From positions 12,688-76,687 of the forward strand of contig JBBSML010000009.1 in assembly GCA_038233215.1 (NCBI GenBank): a stretch of DNA of 64,000 nucleotides. Reading direction: 5' to 3'. The notes beneath the pieces were generated by a model. That model ran no database searches, was not told the DNA's origin, and saw only the letters and a list, made by a program, of their open reading frames with translations. Below, one piece after another: positions 29,703 to 37,614 of this stretch (position 1 is its first letter; each line of letters begins with the position of its first letter). The position numbers and the translations under genes were made by a program. Source of the stretch: Candidatus Limnocylindria bacterium. Lineage in GTDB: Bacteria > Chloroflexota > Limnocylindria > QHBO01.

Positions 29703-29841
29703 CAGGGGAGTGGCATCGCATGGCTCGCGGCCCACTGATCCCCTGGTACCGATGCCGGAGCAGCCGGCGTTGTTGGGTCAGCGTGCGAGGCGACCGTCTC
29801 TTCCGGCACGAGGACTCTCACCGCGACCATAATCGACCGAG

Positions 29842-31440
29842 ATGGCCGTGCTCCGCACCTCAACCGATCCCAATGCTCCAGCCACGCAGGTCAATGCCGA
29901 TGCCATGCGCGCGCTGGTGGACGACCTGCGCACGCGAACCGATGCCCTCACGCGCAACGGCGCCGGAGGCGACAGTCGATCCATCGACAGGCATCGTGAG
30001 CGCGGAAAGCTGCCCGTGCGCGAACGGATCGATCGGCTCATCGATCCCGGCAGCGCGTTCCTCGAGTTGAGCGCGCACGCTGCGAACGGCCTGTATGACG
30101 ACGAAGCACCGGGCGCGGGCATCGTGACCGGCATCGGGCAGGTGGAGGGCATCGAATGCGTGCTCGTTGCCAACGACGCGACGGTCAAGGGCGGCACGTA
30201 CTACCCGATGACCGTGAAGAAGCACCTGCGGGCGCAGGAGATCGCGCTCGAGAACCGGCTGCCCTGCCTGTACCTGGTGGACTCGGGTGGGGCTTTCCTG
30301 CCGCTTCAGGACGAGGTCTTCCCGGACCGCGACCATTTCGGACGCATCTTCTACAACCAGGCCCACCTGTCGGCCCAGCGCATCCCGCAGGTCGCCCTGG
30401 TCATGGGCTCCTGCACGGCGGGTGGGGCATACGTCCCGGCGATGTCCGACGAGACGGTCATCGTGAAAGGCACCGGCACCATCTTCCTGGGCGGTCCTCC
30501 GCTGGTACAGGCCGCGACGGGCGAAGTCGTGACCGCCGAGGAGCTCGGCGGCGCCGAGGTTCACACCACGCAATCCGGCGTGGCAGACCACTACGCCCTC
30601 AATGACGAACATGCCCTCGCCGTCGGTCGCCAGATCGTGCGAAATCTCGCGTGGCGCAAGCCGGAACCACCTTGGGAGATTGGCGAGCCGCGCGAGCCAT
30701 CAGTCAACCCTGAAGAGCTGTACGGCGTCATTCCAGCAGACGCTCGGCAGAGCTACGACGTGCGAGAGGTGATCGCTCGCCTGGTCGATGGGTCTGACTT
30801 CCACGAATTCAAGGAGCGCTATGGCACCACCCTCGTCACCGGATTCGCCAGGATCCACGGCTATCCGGTGGGGATCATCGCCAACAACGGCATCCTATTC
30901 AGCGAATCCGCGCTCAAGGGCGCGCACTTCGTCGAGCTCGCCAGCCAGCGACGCGTCCCGCTCATCTTCCTCCAGAACATCACGGGCTTCATGGTCGGTC
31001 GGGAGTACGAGGCCGGCGGAATCGCCCGGGACGGCGCCAAGCTGGTGACCGCGGTGTCGACCACCAACGTGCCGAAGTTCACGGTCATCATCGGCGGCTC
31101 ATTCGGCGCGGGGAATTACGGCATGGCCGGGCGCGCGTATTCCCCCCGCCAGCTGTGGATGTGGCCAAATGGCAGGATCTCGGTCATGGGTGGCACCCAG
31201 GCCGCTCGGGTGCTGTCGACCGTCCGGGGAACCTTCCAGACCGATGCGGACCGCGACGCCTTCGAGGCGCCGATCCTGGGAAAGTATGAGCTCGAAGGCT
31301 CCCCGTATCACTCCACCGCCCGGCTCTGGGATGACGGGGTGATCGATCCAATCGACACGCGACGAGTGCTGGCGATGGGCATCAGCGCCGCATTGAATGC
31401 GCCGATCCCGGAACCTGGATTCAGCCTGTATCGCATGTAG
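29842..31440 (+). CDS. mccB: 3-methylcrotonyl-CoA carboxylase beta (carboxyltransferase) subunit
   Basis: [58 protein letters not shown]. Confidence 0.93.
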
Positions 31441-31523: not shown

Positions 31524-32162
31524 ATGCACATCTGGAGCGAGCGTCCCGGATCGCGGGCTCGGGAGATCGGCGCCGATGTCGTTACGCTGCTGTGGCTGAC
31601 GATCTGGCTCACCCTCGGCATCCGGCTCTACGCCTTTCTGGCCAATCTGGCTGGCGCCGGGCGCCTGGTGCGAGAAGGAGGTGCCGGCATCACGAGCGCC
31701 GGCGAGACGATTGGGTCCGCGCTCGAGGGGTTGCCGCTGGTCGGCGAGGGGGCGGCTTCCGGTGTGCGCGGTGCCCTGGCTGGAGCCGGAGATCCACTGA
31801 TCACCTTCGGAACCGATCTCGAACGGCTCCTGCTGGTCATCTCCGCCCTGCTTGGTCTGCTGCTGGTCGCGACCGCGGTGGTGCCATGGCTCAACCGCTA
31901 CCTGCCATGGCGCCTGGCGAAGTGGCGCCGCCTCAACGCTGCCGCCACGGCGATCCACGGTTCGCGGCTGAAGAGCCGGCAGCTCATCCCCGCGCCGGAG
32001 ATGGAGACGCTCCTCGCATCTCGCGCCCTTCACCGACTCGAATACGACGAGCTTCTGGAGTTCACGCCGGATCCCTTCGGCGACTGGCTCGCCGGGCGCC
32101 ACGAGCGCCTTGCCGAGGCGGAGCTGGACCGGGTCGGCCTGCGCGCCACGAGCGCGCGTTAG
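31524..32162 (+). CDS. Conserved membrane protein
   Basis: Two TM segments around a Gly-rich helical region; AELDRVGLR tail. Confidence 0.7.
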   Translation: MHIWSERPGSRAREIGADVVTLLWLTIWLTLGIRLYAFLANLAGAGRLVREGGAGITSAGETIGSALEGLPLVGEGAASGVRGALAGAGDPLITFGTDLERLLLVISALLGLLLVATAVVPWLNRYLPWRLAKWRRLNAAATAIHGSRLKSRQLIPAPEMETLLASRALHRLEYDELLEFTPDPFGDWLAGRHERLAEAELDRVGLRATSAR

Positions 32163-32950
32163 CCGTCCACGGACGCGGCCGAGACCGGCAGCTCGGCACG
32201 CTCGATGTTGAACCGCAGGCCGAGCAGTTCCATGGTGCGCGCCGAATCCACCTCCGCGGCCAGGGTGACGACCGCCGGCACTGCCATCTCGCGCCGCGGC
32301 ACCAGCCGGATGACATGCAGCCCAATGTCGGCGACGGCGAGGTCCGCGACCGCCCAGAAATCGATCTCGAGTCGCTCGTGGATGGTGGCCGCGACCGATG
32401 GCGGATCACCGGTTGCCAAGTCGAGCCGGGTCAGGATGACGGGAGAGCCGAGCGGATGGCGAAAGCTCGCGCGATCGGCCATCGCCGCATGGCCCCATTC
32501 CGCGCCGACGTAGGCGTGCTGGATCAGAAAGGGTACTGCGTCCGGTGCGAGCGGAGCATCGGGAAAGGCGGCCCACCACTCGACGCGCTCGCCGTCGGCC
32601 CGCACCCGGCTGCCGTGGGTGACCGGTCCGAACGAGCCTTCGGGTAGGCTGCCGACCGTCCGCTCGATCTCGTCGTCGCAGAGCGCGTAGGTCGCGAGGC
32701 CTCCACCGTTGGCGTCAAGGACGGCAACCGCGGCCGCGCCGACCGGCTGCTGAAGTGCCGCCTCGCGATCGTCGACCCCTATCAGCTCGAGGTAGCTGCC
32801 GTCGGCCAACCACACGATGCGATTGAAGGTTCCCAAACCATCGTGCCTGCCGCCACCACCGACTGCCAGGCCGAGGGCAGACTCGAGCTCGGTTGCCGCC
32901 GCAGCGGGATCGGCACATGCGACGACGAGGTGATCGATGCCTCGGATCAT
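32159..32950 (-). CDS. VOC / glyoxalase-like (Glyoxalase_3) protein
   Basis: IDHLVV, GGRHDGLGTFNRIV, YLELIG, PFLIQ. Confidence 0.85.
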   Translation of the reverse strand: MIRGIDHLVVACADPAAAATELESALGLAVGGGGRHDGLGTFNRIVWLADGSYLELIGVDDREAALQQPVGAAAVAVLDANGGGLATYALCDDEIERTVGSLPEGSFGPVTHGSRVRADGERVEWWAAFPDAPLAPDAVPFLIQHAYVGAEWGHAAMADRASFRHPLGSPVILTRLDLATGDPPSVAATIHERLEIDFWAVADLAVADIGLHVIRLVPRREMAVPAVVTLAAEVDSARTMELLGLRFNIERAELPVSAASVDG

Positions 32951-32988
32951 GCCAACGATGCTACCAGCATCCGTTAGGCTCACCGGAC

Positions 32989-33801
32989 ATGAACCAGATC
33001 GATCGACCCGCGCTCAATTCGCACGATCGGAGCACCCCGTCCGGGTCGCTGGAAACGAGCGCGGCGAACCTGTTTGAAGCGATGCTCGCCGCCCGCGAGG
33101 CCGAGGAACGAGGTGCGGACGCCCGAGTGCTCGATGCGTTCTACCGCACGCTCATGAGCGGGACGCTGCTGTTGCCGGTTCCACCGGAGCATGGGGCTGA
33201 GGCGAGAGAGGCGCTTGCAGCGGCGGTCAATGACGACGAGCAGGTCGAGATCAGCGTCATGCTGGCGCGCGAGGGAGATGGAACACCGGTCGGCGTCGTC
33301 TTTGGCTCGATAGGCGCTTTGGCCGCCTGGGCCCCGGCGCACACCGGCAACCTTCCACTGCCGGCGCGCATCGCCATAGCCAATCTTGCGTCGGCCGGCA
33401 TGCCGGCCATCATGGATCCGGCCGGCCCGGTGCCCTACCGCTTTGACACCGATGAATTGGCGTCCCTTGCCAAGGGCCATCTGCCCGGCGACCGTGGGCC
33501 ACTCTTCGAGCCCACGGCACGCTCCTCGATCCGCATCCGACTGCCCGGTCACGACACCCGCGACATCGAGGGCACGCTCGTCGCAGCACTGCGCGACACC
33601 GCCGTCGAGGCGGCCTACCTCGTCGAGACCGATGGCCCGGACCAACGGCCGCGGCTCATGCTGGGCCTGGTCGGTGCACAGGGCGCGCAGGCAACCGTCG
33701 ATGTCCCGGACGGCACCGAGGTCGTCTGGCTCGAGGAGCCGCTGCTCACCCAGGTGAGCGTCATCGCCGAGCCGTTCCACCGACGGGGCCGTGGCCGATG
33801 A
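32989..33801 (+). CDS. SseB family protein (N and C domains)
   Basis: L...TLLLPV, VFGSIGALAAW, MDPAGP, VEAAYL. Confidence 0.75.
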   Translation: MNQIDRPALNSHDRSTPSGSLETSAANLFEAMLAAREAEERGADARVLDAFYRTLMSGTLLLPVPPEHGAEAREALAAAVNDDEQVEISVMLAREGDGTPVGVVFGSIGALAAWAPAHTGNLPLPARIAIANLASAGMPAIMDPAGPVPYRFDTDELASLAKGHLPGDRGPLFEPTARSSIRIRLPGHDTRDIEGTLVAALRDTAVEAAYLVETDGPDQRPRLMLGLVGAQGAQATVDVPDGTEVVWLEEPLLTQVSVIAEPFHRRGRGR

Positions 33802-34595
33802 ACGAGCTCCTGCGCATCGAGCGGGACGGGCCATTCGCTCACGTGACCCTCACCCGCCCGCAGGTGCGCAACGCGTTCAACGCCGCGCTGATCGACGAAC
33901 TCCGTCAAGCCTTCGAGCTGCTCTCGACGGAAGCTCCCGATACCCTGCGCGGCGTGGTGCTGGCCGGGGACGGACCGACGTTCTGTGCCGGTGCCGATGT
34001 GGAATGGATGCGAAGCGCCATCGGTCTGTCGCTCGAGGAGAACGAGCGTGGCGCCGCCGCCATGCAGGCCATGTTCACCGCATTGAACGCCTGTCCGGTG
34101 CCGGTGATTGCGCGCGTGCAGGGCGCTGCCCTCGGGGGAGGGATGGGTCTCTGCGCCGTGAGCGATATCGTCGTGGCCGCTGACGATGCCACCTTCGGAT
34201 TCACGGAAACGAAACTCGGGATCATCCCCGCGGTGATCAGCATGTTCGTGATTCCGAAGATCGGCGAGTCCCATGCTCGCGCGCTGTTCGCGACCGGTCA
34301 ACGCTTCGGAGCCGAGCATGCCATGCGCATCGGCCTTGTGCACGAGGTGGTTCATGAAGCGGCGCTCGATGCACGGGTGGACGAGCTCATCACGGAGCTC
34401 CGTTCAGCGGGTCCGACGGCAGCCCGCGCCGCCAAGGCGCTCGTCCGGGAGCTGCCCACGCTGGGCGTCAGCGATGCGATGCGTGTCACGGTGCGCCGCA
34501 TCGCCGAGCAGCGAACATCAGCAGAGGGCCAGGAAGGACTTACCGCTTTTCTCGAGAAGCGGTCGCCGATGTGGCGCTCGGACGAGCACGGATAG
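33798..34595 (+). CDS. liuC: Enoyl-CoA hydratase, methylglutaconyl-CoA hydratase type
   Basis: LTRPQVRNAFN, FCAGAD, ALGGGMGL, ETKLGIIPAVI, EGQEGLTAFLEKR; leucine-pathway context. Confidence 0.85.
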   Translation: MNELLRIERDGPFAHVTLTRPQVRNAFNAALIDELRQAFELLSTEAPDTLRGVVLAGDGPTFCAGADVEWMRSAIGLSLEENERGAAAMQAMFTALNACPVPVIARVQGAALGGGMGLCAVSDIVVAADDATFGFTETKLGIIPAVISMFVIPKIGESHARALFATGQRFGAEHAMRIGLVHEVVHEAALDARVDELITELRSAGPTAARAAKALVRELPTLGVSDAMRVTVRRIAEQRTSAEGQEGLTAFLEKRSPMWRSDEHG

Positions 34596-36605
34596 ATGAG
34601 CACCGATCTGACGCCTCGAGAGGTCGCTTCAGAACTGGGCGTAACGGTGCGGACCGTACAGCGCTGGATTACCGATGGGCGTCTGAAGGCGACACGAGTC
34701 GGATCCCGACTTCGGGTGTCGCGTTCGTCGCTGCGCGCCGTGACTGACATGGAGACGACGCGCCGGCATCCGATTCACTCGCTCCTGATTGCCAATCGAG
34801 GCGAGATCGCGGCGCGCATCGCCCGTTCGGCGCGCCGCATGAGGATCCGGGTCATCGGCGTCCACGAGGCCGATGAGCGCGCTCCCGACGGTGTGGACGA
34901 GAGCCACGAGATCGGCTCCTACCTGGACGGAGGGGAGTTGCTGGCCGTCGCAGTTCGGGCTGGAGCCGACGCCGTCCATCCGGGCTACGGGTTCCTCGCC
35001 GAGAACCCGGCGTTCGCGCGTGCCGTCACCACGGCCGGATTGATCTGGGTCGGACCGCCCGCCGAGGCCATTGCGGCCATGGGCGACAAGGCGGCGGCGC
35101 GGCGCCAGGCGGTGGCACAGGACATCGCGATCGTGCCCGGCTACGACGGCGAGGCGCAGGACGATGCCACGCTGATCGCGGAGGCAACCCGGGTCGGGTA
35201 CCCGCTGCTCGTCAAGCCAAGCGCCGGCGGCGGCGGGAAGGGCATGCACGTCGTGCGGGCGGCAACCGCGTTGCCCGAGGCGCTCGAGGCGGCGCGCCGC
35301 GAGGCGCATCGGTCCTTCGGAGACGATCGGCTCATCCTGGAGCGCTATTTGGAAGGTCCGCGCCACGTCGAGATCCAGGTCCTGTTCGACGACCACGGCA
35401 ACGGCGTCCACCTGGGAGAGCGTGACTGCAGCGCGCAGCGACGGAACCAGAAAGTCGTCGAGGAAGCGCCCGCACCATCCGTCACGCCGGAGCTCCGTGC
35501 GCGCATGGGGGAATCGGCGCTGAAGGTGGCCGGAGCGGTGGGCTATGTCAGCGCCGGAACGGTCGAGATGCTGCTGACCGATGCGGGGGAGTTCTTCTTC
35601 CTCGAGATGAATACGCGCCTCCAGGTTGAGCACCCTGTGACCGAGAAGGTCACCGGTCGCGATCTGGTCGAGGATCAATTGCGCATTGCGGCCGGAGCGT
35701 CCCTGGCGGAGCTGGGCATCGAGGAACCGCCCCGGATCAGCGGTCACGCGATCGAGGCGCGCATCTATGCCGAAGATCCCGAAGCTGGCTTTCTGCCGGC
35801 GACCGGTCGGCTGGTGAAGGTTGCGTGGCCCGCAGGCGTGCGCATCGACACGGGCGTTCGAGAAGGCGACGTCGTCATCGACCGATACGACCCCATGCTC
35901 GCCAAGCTGATCGTCCACGCCCGGACGCGCCGGCAGGCGCTCGACCGGCTCCGGGTGGCACTCGACGCCACCGCCATCCTCGGGGTGCGGACCAACGTCC
36001 GGTTCCTGCGATGGCTCGTCCGGCAGGAGCCGATGCGCACGGGCGAGGTGCGAACCGACACGATCGAATCCCTGGGCCCTCCCGCCCTTCGCGAGCTCGC
36101 CGACGAGGATTGGGCCGGGGCGGCGGCCGAGCTCACCTCTGGGGATGCCGGAACCTGGGGCGGCGGATGGCGCATGAATGGCAACTCCGTCGTTCGGCTC
36201 GCCAGCGAAGGCACCCAGCGCGCGACCATCGTCAGCCCGCAACCGATCGTGTGGGCCGTCGTCGATGGCGAGAAGGCTTATGTGGACGTTGACGGTCAGT
36301 CAGTCGAGTTCGAGCTCGCGCCAGCACCCAGCATCGAGGATGCGGTCCGCAGTGCCGTCGCCGGCGGTGCCGACGCCACATCGGTCCTGGCGGCGCCCAT
36401 GCCCGGTCGGGTGATTGCCGTGCGTGCCACCGATGGCGCATCGGTGAAGGCTGGTCAGCCGGTGGTCATCATCGAGGCCATGAAGATGGAGCACGCCGTT
36501 CTCGCGCCGACTGATGGAACCTTGAAGGTCAGGGTCACGGAGGGACAGCAGGTCCGGCGTGGCGACATGCTGGCCGAGATCCTCCCGCCAGAGTCCGAAG
36601 CGTGA
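34596..36605 (+). CDS. mccA: Methylcrotonyl-CoA carboxylase alpha (biotin carboxylase + BCCP) with N-terminal excisionase/MerR-type HTH
   Basis: HTH LTPREVASELGVTVRTVQRWITDGRLKATRVG; LIANRGEIA, HPGYGFLAEN, EMNTRLQVEH; biotinylation site EAMKMEH. Confidence 0.92.
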   Translation: MSTDLTPREVASELGVTVRTVQRWITDGRLKATRVGSRLRVSRSSLRAVTDMETTRRHPIHSLLIANRGEIAARIARSARRMRIRVIGVHEADERAPDGVDESHEIGSYLDGGELLAVAVRAGADAVHPGYGFLAENPAFARAVTTAGLIWVGPPAEAIAAMGDKAAARRQAVAQDIAIVPGYDGEAQDDATLIAEATRVGYPLLVKPSAGGGGKGMHVVRAATALPEALEAARREAHRSFGDDRLILERYLEGPRHVEIQVLFDDHGNGVHLGERDCSAQRRNQKVVEEAPAPSVTPELRARMGESALKVAGAVGYVSAGTVEMLLTDAGEFFFLEMNTRLQVEHPVTEKVTGRDLVEDQLRIAAGASLAELGIEEPPRISGHAIEARIYAEDPEAGFLPATGRLVKVAWPAGVRIDTGVREGDVVIDRYDPMLAKLIVHARTRRQALDRLRVALDATAILGVRTNVRFLRWLVRQEPMRTGEVRTDTIESLGPPALRELADEDWAGAAAELTSGDAGTWGGGWRMNGNSVVRLASEGTQRATIVSPQPIVWAVVDGEKAYVDVDGQSVEFELAPAPSIEDAVRSAVAGGADATSVLAAPMPGRVIAVRATDGASVKAGQPVVIIEAMKMEHAVLAPTDGTLKVRVTEGQQVRRGDMLAEILPPESEA

Positions 36606-36712
36606 TCACCGCGGTCGATTCGAGCGTGCTGTTGGACGTGCTGAGCCGCGGCTTCTATCGGCGCTGCTTCGGTGTACGCGAAGTCGTGGATCAAGCCACA
36701 CCTGTCTCATGA
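36602..36712 (+). pseudogene. Internally deleted PIN/VapC relic (36 aa), coupled on both sides
   Basis: MITAVDSSVLLDVLSRGFYRRCFGVREVVDQATPVS*; GTGA overlap with mccA and ATGA overlap with the lyase. Confidence 0.6.
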
Positions 36713-37614
36713 GCGATCGCGACGTTCGCATCTACGAGGTGGGCCCGCGCGACGGGCTCCAGAACGAGACGGCTCCGATCCCGACCGAGGCCAAGCTGCG
36801 CTTCATCGAGCTGCTCGCCGATGCCGGCTTGCGTGAAATCGAGGCCACCAGCTTCGTCTCACCCAAAGCGATCCCGCAGCTGGCCGACGCCGGTGAGCTC
36901 ATGTCACGCCTGGAACGCCGGCCCGGGATGCGATATCCCGTCCTGGTCCCCAACTCACGGGGGCTGGAGCGCGCCGAGGCCGCAGGCGCCGAGGCCGTCT
37001 GCGTGTTCACTGCCGCATCCGAGCCGTTCACGCGGGCGAACATCAACATGACGATCGTCGAATCGATCGATGCCTTCAAACCGGTCCTGGCGCGTGCCCG
37101 AGAGCGAGGCTGGTGGACGCGTGGGTACGTGAGCACCGCCTTCGGTTGCCCGTACCAGGGTGATGTGGGCGAGGCCGCGGTCGTGGGCGTCGCACTTCAG
37201 CTGCTGGAGCTGGGCGTCGAGGAGCTGAGTATCGGCGACACCATCGGCGTGGCCGGACCGGCCGATGTGCGACGCGTCGTCGGCGCGCTGCTCGGAGCAG
37301 GTATCGACGCTGAGCGGCTCGCCATGCACTTCCACGATACGCGCGGCACGGCGCTCGCCAACGTCAGCGCGGCGATTGATCTCGGCATCCGCTGCTTCGA
37401 CGCCTCGACCGGCGGCACCGGTGGCTGTCCGTACGCGCCGGGTGCGGCCGGCAATCTCGCCACCGAGGACCTCGTGTACATGCTCGACCGTGAAGGCCTC
37501 TCGCACGGGGTGGATCTCGACCGGCTGATTGTCGCGGCCCGGTACATCAGCGGGGCCCTTGGCCGCCCCCTGGGGACGAACGTCGGCCAGGCGGGCGGCT
37601 GGCGCGTACCATAG
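36709..37614 (+). CDS. liuE: Hydroxymethylglutaryl-CoA lyase
   Basis: EVGPRDGLQNE, SFVSPKAIPQL, AFGCPY, DTIG, HFHDTRG, GGCPYAPGAAGN. Confidence 0.95.
   Translation: MSDRDVRIYEVGPRDGLQNETAPIPTEAKLRFIELLADAGLREIEATSFVSPKAIPQLADAGELMSRLERRPGMRYPVLVPNSRGLERAEAAGAEAVCVFTAASEPFTRANINMTIVESIDAFKPVLARARERGWWTRGYVSTAFGCPYQGDVGEAAVVGVALQLLELGVEELSIGDTIGVAGPADVRRVVGALLGAGIDAERLAMHFHDTRGTALANVSAAIDLGIRCFDASTGGTGGCPYAPGAAGNLATEDLVYMLDREGLSHGVDLDRLIVAARYISGALGRPLGTNVGQAGGWRVP

Follow-up and report, generated by a model that had tools for sequence, protein, structure and literature searches.

Why should the biotin-carrying subunit of a leucine-catabolic carboxylase begin with a domain of the kind that binds DNA? 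The question is raised by the gene liuD in a stretch of 64,000 nts (hereafter, the window) from a soil bacterium, Candidatus Limnocylindria (GenBank assembly GCA_038233215.1, contig JBBSML010000009.1, positions 12,688 to 76,687). The gene occupies positions 34596..36605 of the forward strand as a complete open reading frame (ORF) of 669 aa plus a stop codon. It joins a helix-turn-helix (HTH) domain to the alpha subunit of methylcrotonyl-CoA carboxylase (MCC), itself composed of biotin carboxylase (BC), BT and biotin carboxyl carrier protein (BCCP) domains. A first-pass annotation of the window had proposed that the protein is a trigger enzyme, which catalyzes its reaction and also acts as a transcriptional regulator. 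As judged from its homologues, the fusion is an old, selected trait of the class Limnocylindria (phylum Chloroflexota), present in two deep groups, and the comparative evidence points to autoregulation at the start of the gene itself.

Both parts of the protein were identified with profile models. Residues 5-48 (34608..34739, forward strand) match the HTH_17 family (PF12728) of Pfam with 44.8 bits against a gathering threshold of 27 (E 1.6e-11), and the NCBIfam model TIGR01764 “excise”, which describes excisionase-family DNA-binding domains, with 44.3 or 49.4 bits against a cut-off of 28.8. They are followed in frame by a complete biotin carboxylase (34773..36068, forward strand), made of Biotin_carb_N (aa 60-159, 102.5 bits), the ATP-grasp domain CPSase_L_D2 (aa 164-372, 233.1 bits) and Biotin_carb_C (aa 387-491, 117.4 bits), and by a biotinyl BCCP domain (Biotin_lipoyl, aa 598-662, 36387..36581, forward strand, 54.9 bits). 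The predicted biotin acceptor is Lys630, within the AMKM motif (codon 36483-36485). The start codon adjoins the TAG stop of the enoyl-CoA hydratase ORF (33798..34595), and the arrangement described in the first-pass annotation, an HTH_17 domain in frame with an intact BC and a BCCP (EAMKM) in an ORF that begins directly after liuC, is thereby confirmed. No other copy of the fusion HTH was found within the 64-kb window.

The enzymatic part has the features of a functional carboxylase. The catalytic motif EMNTRLQVEHPVTE and the EAMKM motif are present in the fusion protein and invariant among its homologues, and in 71 aligned sequences the glycine-rich loop GGGGKGM, the EMNTRLQVEH motif and the residues E627 to H633 (EAMKMEH) do not vary. 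In the AlphaFold2 (AF2) model, most of the biotin carboxylase part has a predicted local distance difference test score (pLDDT) above 90. Among solved structures, MCC alpha chains come closest (9yx0_D, 488 bits; 3u9s_A, 480 bits; human MCCC1, 455 bits), ahead of the alpha chains of propionyl-CoA carboxylase (PCC; 412-424 bits). The gene therefore appears to encode a working MCC alpha subunit, the substrate being assigned by homology only. None of the solved MCC or PCC alpha chains aligns to residues 1-55, all alignments beginning at query residues 56-62.

Judged by its recurrence, the fusion is not an artefact, the numbers far exceeding what chance or misassembly could produce. Among the best 120 matches in a collection of 5.8 billion proteins (97-67% identity to the window protein), 119 contain PF12728 together with the carboxylase domains, the exception being an N-terminally short entry; the named homologues in this set come from “Candidatus Limnocylindria” of the Chloroflexota. 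A second group (group 2), 54% identical to the window protein, was reached via the genome locus L002, and 119 of its best 120 members carry PF12728. Clustering at 90% identity gives at least ~240 homologue clusters over both groups, with ~90 loci. All 80 metagenome loci collected with an HTH-specific pattern pass from the HTH into the biotin carboxylase in one frame, within the limits of the available sequence; in one of them (L128) the reading frame breaks later, 277 aa past the HTH. Since the orthologues retain the HTH, and no stop codon separates it from the BC in homologues or loci, the fusion holds up in the orthologue comparison by which the first-pass annotation had proposed to judge it. 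On this evidence MCC alpha normally takes the fused form in the Limnocylindria, an abundant uncultured class of soil and freshwater.

Purifying selection on the HTH is as strong as on the catalytic core. The ratio of nonsynonymous to synonymous substitutions (dN/dS), a check that had been suggested for the HTH and that was calculated here by a pooled Nei-Gojobori procedure over 738 locus pairs, is 0.19 in the HTH, the lowest value of any region, compared with 0.22 in the ATP-grasp domain, 0.22-0.29 in the enzyme domains and 0.64 in the linker. Similarly, the column entropy is 0.52 bits in the HTH and 0.57 bits in the ATP-grasp domain.

The HTH appears to be tied to this enzyme. When the HTH by itself was searched exhaustively with HMMER against 1.84 billion representative sequences, proteins with several HTH_17 repeats and fragments made up most of the output. 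All the single-stretch matches with at least 59% identity that were checked were biotin carboxylase fusions or fragments thereof, and no close stand-alone paralogue was found. The next-best matches include proteins of 350-1312 aa with 5-10 tandem HTH_17-like repeats (P0121, P0122, P0123 and P0128) and many proteins of 100-150 aa with two such repeats. Among 80 biotin carboxylase genome loci listed, from many phyla, the HTH is confined to three Chloroflexota loci and the other 77 lack it; the underlying scan used the first 135 aa, its back-translated patterns amounted to generic biotin carboxylase motifs, and it does not map the taxonomic spread exhaustively. In one locus assigned to an “uncultured Chloroflexia” (L007:8001-8130), the HTH and the carboxylase are in different frames beside a run of G in a long-read assembly, which is probably a homopolymer indel of sequencing rather than the mark of a pseudogene. 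Partial N-terminal tblastn extensions, in L074 and elsewhere, were rejected as spurious and contain no HTH.

The predicted structure of the N-terminal domain consists of a strand, two helices (residues 7-14 and 18-26), a beta-hairpin (32-42) and a further helix (43-50), with a pLDDT of 73-90 (mean 82). Foldseek aligned it with the excisionase Xis of mycobacteriophage Pukovnik (4j2n; TM-score 0.78-0.83, 40% identity), with DNA-bound BldC (0.70-0.81, 37% identity) and with DNA-bound RacA (0.76), further matches being SoxR and other MerR N-terminal domains and RdfS. Sequence matches of the HTH in the PDB are limited to those same fold relatives (E 9e-6 for 4j2n). The recognition-helix residues are invariant and the wing is rich in arginine (RVGSRVRVSR). 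In the HMMER alignment, the invariant R23 aligns with Arg30 of BldC, and R29, at least 90% conserved, with Lys36, two residues that make base or major-groove contacts in BldC (BldC paper). On this model, the domain folds like DNA-binding winged HTH (wHTH) proteins and would presumably bind DNA as they do. A closer kinship with the MerR-type regulator LiuR, evoked in the first-pass annotation, was not borne out. The classical MerR models of Pfam score below their cut-offs (PF00376, 19.4 bits against 28.2; PF13411, 16.5 bits against 21.6), and in the AF2 model the HTH is followed not by a coiled coil but by a short helix and then a disordered linker; hence the fusion HTH is not a MerR/LiuR protein.

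A candidate for a site of action lies at the start of the gene in relatives of the window. A near-invariant motif of 16 nts, O1 (cTGCGACAATCGCGAC), is located directly 5′ of the start codon (ATG or GTG) in 78 group-1 loci with 77 distinct flanks. In group 2, its core TGCGACAATCGCG is found in 11 out of 11 loci with at most one mismatch, 5-7 nts from the ATG. The motif was located in L084-L162 (e.g., L090:9986-10003), L001, L002 and L163-L171. Its edges are sharp, as the positions before it are uninformative and the synonymous sites after it have diverged (proportion of synonymous differences, pS, ~0.53), and it is more constrained than the TAnnnT boxes of the neighbouring liu genes. O1 parses as an extended -10 element (TGcGACAAT) followed by six bases and the start codon, a layout that would suit a promoter driving a leaderless mRNA. 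Read in frame, O1 would encode CDNRD, and some gene calls include these residues as a spurious N-terminal extension (e.g., P0018, P0027 and P0118). A coding role was rejected, since the motif shows no synonymous variation, no upstream start is conserved and stops occur close upstream. In L167, the gene call begins at an ATG within O1.

If O1 acts in relatives as the leaderless promoter that its sequence suggests, translation there would have to begin at the HTH. This bears on an HTH-less isoform, which the first-pass annotation had thought might arise from an internal ATG. The codon concerned, Met52 (34749-34751), belongs to a variable and probably flexible linker (aa 49-59, 34740..34772, forward strand), which has a mean identity of 25%, a column entropy of 2.45 bits and a length of 8-16 residues, and in which residues 51-55 have a pLDDT below 50. 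Only 7 out of 121 sequences have Met in this column, and no Shine-Dalgarno sequence is visible before Met52. The isoform, which may still occur in this particular genome, is left without comparative support, because Met52 is unconserved and lies in a variable linker.

A second element, O2 (GTGTCGCGTTCGTCGCT; 34716..34732, reverse strand), is conserved at the nucleotide level within codons 41-46 of the HTH, where its wing is encoded, and was recognized by its synonymous constraint and its likeness to O1. Among 250 codons, five of the six strongest outliers for synonymous constraint are codons 41-45 (V-S-R-S-S; GTG TCG CGT TCG TCG). Of 75 loci, 59 have CGT for the arginine, a codon that accounts for only 9.6% of Arg codons, and 71-74 have TCG for the serines. 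Read as its reverse complement, GCGACGAACGCGAC, O2 resembles O1 imperfectly, agreeing at 12 out of 14 positions, and repeats GCGAC at a 9-bp spacing; in the window, O2 (34718-34731) is the sole exact match to GCGACNNNCGCGAC in 64 kb. In group 2, the peptide at this site is VAIDA, encoded by GTCGCGATTGACGC, the reverse complement of which, GCGTCAATCGCGAC, matches O1 at 13 out of 14 positions and is followed by one or two extra 9-nt units (GACGCGnTT). Hence, O1 and O2 both carry GCGAC-like pentamers 9 bp apart, are mutually inverted and lie ~135-140 bp from each other. In L082, a more distant relative, both elements are degenerate.

The window itself has lost O1. Together with L083, it shares a clean 30-nt deletion relative to its close relative L084; alignment to L084, L090 and L086 places the deletion, which removed the spacer and O1, at the TAG-ATG junction (34593..34598, forward strand). 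The window contains no match to O1 beyond the chance level, and the region 34571-34595 is devoid of O1. The window gene has probably switched from a leaderless promoter of its own to translational coupling with liuC, and the putative autoregulatory circuit is probably weakened or rewired, while the HTH and O2 are intact. Relaxed selection on the HTH in O1-less lineages was considered and rejected, the domains of the window and L083 being intact at conserved columns. As the HTH is intact without O1, either it has value without O1 or the loss of O1 is recent.

What the HTH does can be addressed from these elements only provisionally. We propose, with somewhat less than even confidence, that the fused carboxylase binds DNA at the start of its own gene and represses its own transcription. 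The HTH would recognize O1 and O2 as head-to-tail arrays in the manner of BldC, and its binding would repress the O1 promoter, placing liuD and liuE under autogenous control. The output of alpha subunit and of liuE would thereby be matched to need or to assembly. If the enzyme is multimeric, its several HTHs could sit head to tail on the repeats and might connect O1 with O2. A more elaborate form of this proposal, which is possible but doubtful, holds that the alpha subunit or the MCC holoenzyme is a sequence-specific repressor whose HTHs polymerize on the 9-bp GCGAC repeats of two inverted operators and loop the ~135 bp between them, such that the assembly state sets the transcription of its own operon. 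The number of HTH copies per MCC holoenzyme is taken from the subunit number of solved homologues. One operator would overlap the leaderless promoter and the other would be embedded in the coding sequence of the HTH itself.

Several observations weigh against autorepression at O1 and O2. The link between the HTH and the two elements is drawn from their co-occurrence and a BldC-like geometry, and the invariance of O1 could stem from the needs of a promoter or transcription start together with another factor. The -10 hexamer of O1, GACAAT, is non-canonical, and a sigma-70 consensus scan of the O1 region, which demands a -35 box, gave no match. No further O1-like sites were found in ~600 kb of loci, and therefore any regulon would be a single operon. 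The CGT codon preferred in O2 maximizes neither the likeness to O1 nor the pairing with it. The HTHs of the window and L083 show no deviation at conserved columns despite the loss of O1. Finally, O1 and O2 can pair as RNA, with 12 bp predicted.

This last property suggests a different explanation, in which O1 and O2 anneal over a long distance to form a stem in a polycistronic liuC-liuD transcript, the stem occluding the start codon and controlling translation while the HTH is unrelated to either element. RNAalifold pairs O1 with O2 in 12 out of 12 sequences, including the A of the AUG, the complementarity extends to 12-13 of 14 positions in both groups with different mismatches, and O1 is located exactly at a start codon with no visible Shine-Dalgarno sequence. 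However, every predicted pair is invariant and there is consequently no covariation, while four types of O1 variant occur together with the consensus O2, two of them disrupting a pair for which O2 does not compensate. CGA would restore a pair, yet CGT is strongly preferred. The 9-nt direct repeats of each arm and the tandem duplication of group 2 play no part in the stem, an Rfam search of the O1-O2 region returned no family match and, if O1 promotes a leaderless mRNA, it is absent from that RNA. We therefore regard the RNA stem as unlikely. A wider role than autorepression, distinctly unlikely in our view, is that of a trigger enzyme that governs the whole liu regulon according to biotinylation, substrate or assembly state. 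It is the form in which the first-pass annotation had cast its proposal, with the promoters near 29.7 kb and 32.95 kb as targets. The liu genes are spread over at least two or three transcription units, which would gain from coordination, PutA and BirA provide precedents, and the persistence of the HTH in the O1-less window would allow for other targets. The first half of the idea stands, in that an intact pathway enzyme and a conserved, selected module of DNA-binding type are found in one polypeptide. At the two promoters, only -10 boxes are conserved: upstream of liuB, which is preceded by a -10-like CATAAT (29828-29833), CCATAATC is the only conserved sequence and is kept in 14 loci, and the interval between the Glyoxalase_3 and SseB-like genes (32958-32991 in the window) contains only the conserved divergent -10 boxes TAGCAT and TAGGCT. 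Neither the liuB nor the SseB-liuC promoter has a GCGAC-N4-GCGAC element or a motif in common with O1. The idea is thus only partly supported, because no shared operator was found at the 29.7-kb or 32.95-kb promoters. The palindrome GATGCTAcCAGCATC, considered as such an operator, was rejected because it corresponds to the two divergent -10 boxes and is lost in more distant loci.

The HTH might also not be a regulator. It could instead tether the large carboxylase complex to the nucleoid, binding DNA with low specificity in the manner of RacA, or mediate protein-protein contacts or assembly. The chromosome-anchoring RacA is among its best sequence and fold matches, the arginine-rich wing could bind DNA non-specifically, and the HTH survives the loss of O1. 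Such a role would leave unexplained the sequence-specific O1 and O2, co-conserved at this gene alone, and the invariant recognition-helix residues are as expected for specific readout. We know of no comparable tethering of a catabolic enzyme and consider this role quite improbable. Lastly, the inverted repeats of ~14 bp that flank a ~135-bp segment, the excisionase family of the HTH and an inserted gene in L100 that carries a duplicated O1 and the first 11 codons of the fusion could be taken as marks of DNA that is mobile or can invert, be it an inverton or what is left of an insertion that delivered the HTH, with the HTH as a recombination directionality factor. This is hardly credible, since the conserved neighbourhoods of both groups contain no integrase, invertase or recombinase, the segment has one orientation in every locus and its inversion would destroy the reading frame, and the long-term synonymous constraint argues for a present function rather than a relic.

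The autorepression model draws on BldC of Streptomyces, the founding protein of the small MerR-like wHTH regulators. Like the fusion HTH, BldC has a winged-helix fold, no coiled-coil or effector domain and, at Arg30, a counterpart to an invariant arginine. BldC binds head to tail on 9-bp direct repeats of consensus AATTxxxxC, Arg30 reading a C-G pair (BldC paper). The candidate sites O1 and O2 contain putative 9-bp direct repeats, and their unit AATCGCGAC fits the protomer consensus of BldC. In contrast, BldC is a free-standing protein of 68 aa with a developmental regulon, while the fusion HTH sits on a 610-aa enzyme. Because it is fused, and because it scores 31 bits against a cut-off of 77 with the NCBIfam model HTH_BldC (NF033787), the fusion HTH does not belong to the BldC family as defined. 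Excisionases of phages and integrative conjugative elements (ICEs), namely Pukovnik Xis (gp37) and RdfS, are its best sequence and fold matches. However, the fusion HTH is joined to a metabolic enzyme and no integrase or mobile element occurs in its conserved context, hence it is not functionally an excisionase. Databases often name these carboxylases of ~670 aa “excisionase family DNA-binding protein”, a misleading name that hides a gene of leucine catabolism.

On the enzyme side, the solved MCC alpha chains (3u9s, human MCCC1 8j4z and 9yx0) share with the fusion the BC-BT-BCCP order, the catalytic motifs, the MCC beta partner and the liu context, but they lack an N-terminal HTH. As regulators, the nearest parallels are enzymes with DNA-binding domains. 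PutA, a DNA-binding enzyme, joins a ribbon-helix-helix (RHH) domain to the proline catabolic enzymes. BirA joins a wHTH to a biotin protein ligase and is likewise tied to biotin enzymology (PMC4016012). The fusion is grouped with these proteins conceptually, the DNA-binding fold and the enzyme class being different; moreover, the operators and switching of BirA and PutA are experimentally established, while the fusion is known from sequence and predicted fold. LiuR is a separate MerR-family protein with a coiled-coil dimerization region. It shares with the fusion HTH the pathway and the broad HTH superfamily, but the candidate sites described here repeat in one direction instead of forming a palindrome within a promoter spacer. 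LiuR is named as the regulator of the liu genes in Proteobacteria (PMC5343134, PMC3223726).

A carboxylase subunit that feeds back on its own genes has been suggested before. In E. coli, AccB was proposed to autoregulate accBC transcription, and the carboxyltransferase to act on the accA and accD mRNAs; AccB has no recognizable DNA-binding motif and the carboxyltransferase-mRNA model was challenged (PMC11602165). The role proposed for the fusion is similar in that a subunit of a biotin-dependent carboxylase would regulate its own genes, with the difference that the fusion has a canonical wHTH. Full-text searches found no paper on an HTH-carboxylase fusion, and a review of how carboxylases evolved is silent on it. 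No solved chain carries the HTH, and the fusion to MCC alpha appears to be new to the literature, in line with the first-pass annotation, which knew of no such MCC alpha, although the proteins are already present in databases under automatic names. This is the more striking as biotin-dependent carboxylases are well studied both structurally and genetically, yet no solved alpha subunit aligns to the HTH.

If autoregulation is correct, the fusion would offer a compact system in which to study feedback from the assembly or abundance of an enzyme to transcription. Recognition of direct repeats in the manner of BldC would then extend beyond Actinobacteria and beyond stand-alone proteins. Should the looping repressor be correct, a genuine regulatory domain that binds DNA would be on record for the first time in a biotin-dependent carboxylase, and an operator would be written into the codons of the very domain that reads it. 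The short and defined candidate operators O1 and O2 make the model directly testable.

The surroundings of the gene are those expected of leucine catabolism. The partner of the fused alpha subunit would be the MCC beta subunit (carboxyltransferase) encoded by liuB (29842..31440, forward strand; Pfam Carboxyl_trans, 505 bits), the product of which scores 774 bits with the MCC beta chain of P. aeruginosa (3u9r_B), 438 bits with the beta chain of geranyl-CoA carboxylase (GCC) and at most 273 bits with PCC-type chains. Directly upstream of the fusion, the enoyl-CoA hydratase gene liuC (33798..34595, forward strand; Pfam ECH_1, 181.9 bits) is a candidate for methylglutaconyl-CoA hydratase with conserved synteny. 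Downstream, a gene resembling 3-hydroxy-3-methylglutaryl-CoA (HMG-CoA) lyase (36709..37614, forward strand; Pfam HMGL-like, 147 bits) is the liuE candidate, its synteny being conserved in both groups. The conserved order is DUF6812, liuB, an unknown gene, Glyoxalase_3 on the opposite strand, an SseB-like gene, liuC, HTH-liuD, liuE and a nucleoside hydrolase gene. The genes of the liu cluster have TAnnnT-like boxes 6-10 nts 5′ of their start codons and no visible Shine-Dalgarno sequence; this position of the boxes suggests leaderless expression, and that leaderless mRNAs are usual in the Limnocylindria lineage. The -10 box of liuB differs between the groups, from CATAAT in group 1 to TATCAT in group 2.

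Two members of the cluster have no obvious role in leucine catabolism. The SseB-like gene (PF07179; 32986-33801) overlaps liuC by ATGA, which couples their translation, and the divergent Glyoxalase_3 gene (32159-32983, reverse strand) is conserved within the cluster. In some loci the order is interrupted. In L082 (12027-12682), a toxin-antitoxin pair of MazE-antitoxin and PIN types is inserted between the carboxylase alpha and HMG-CoA lyase genes. In the group-2 loci L163-L171, the same position is occupied by a conserved ORF of 62-122 aa with no Pfam match, and genes for an HNH endonuclease-domain protein and a member of the CCA-adding/poly(A) polymerase family are located farther downstream. 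A gene of ~1.1 kb is inserted between liuC and the fusion gene in L092, L100, L101, L102, L108, L113, L115, L124, L132 and L145. Judged by eye, this gene (L100:1121-2212) resembles LD-carboxypeptidase (Peptidase_S66), and in L100 it opens with the duplicated O1 and the first 11 codons of the fusion gene (MPDELTPRQVA), as if a module of promoter and start had been copied.

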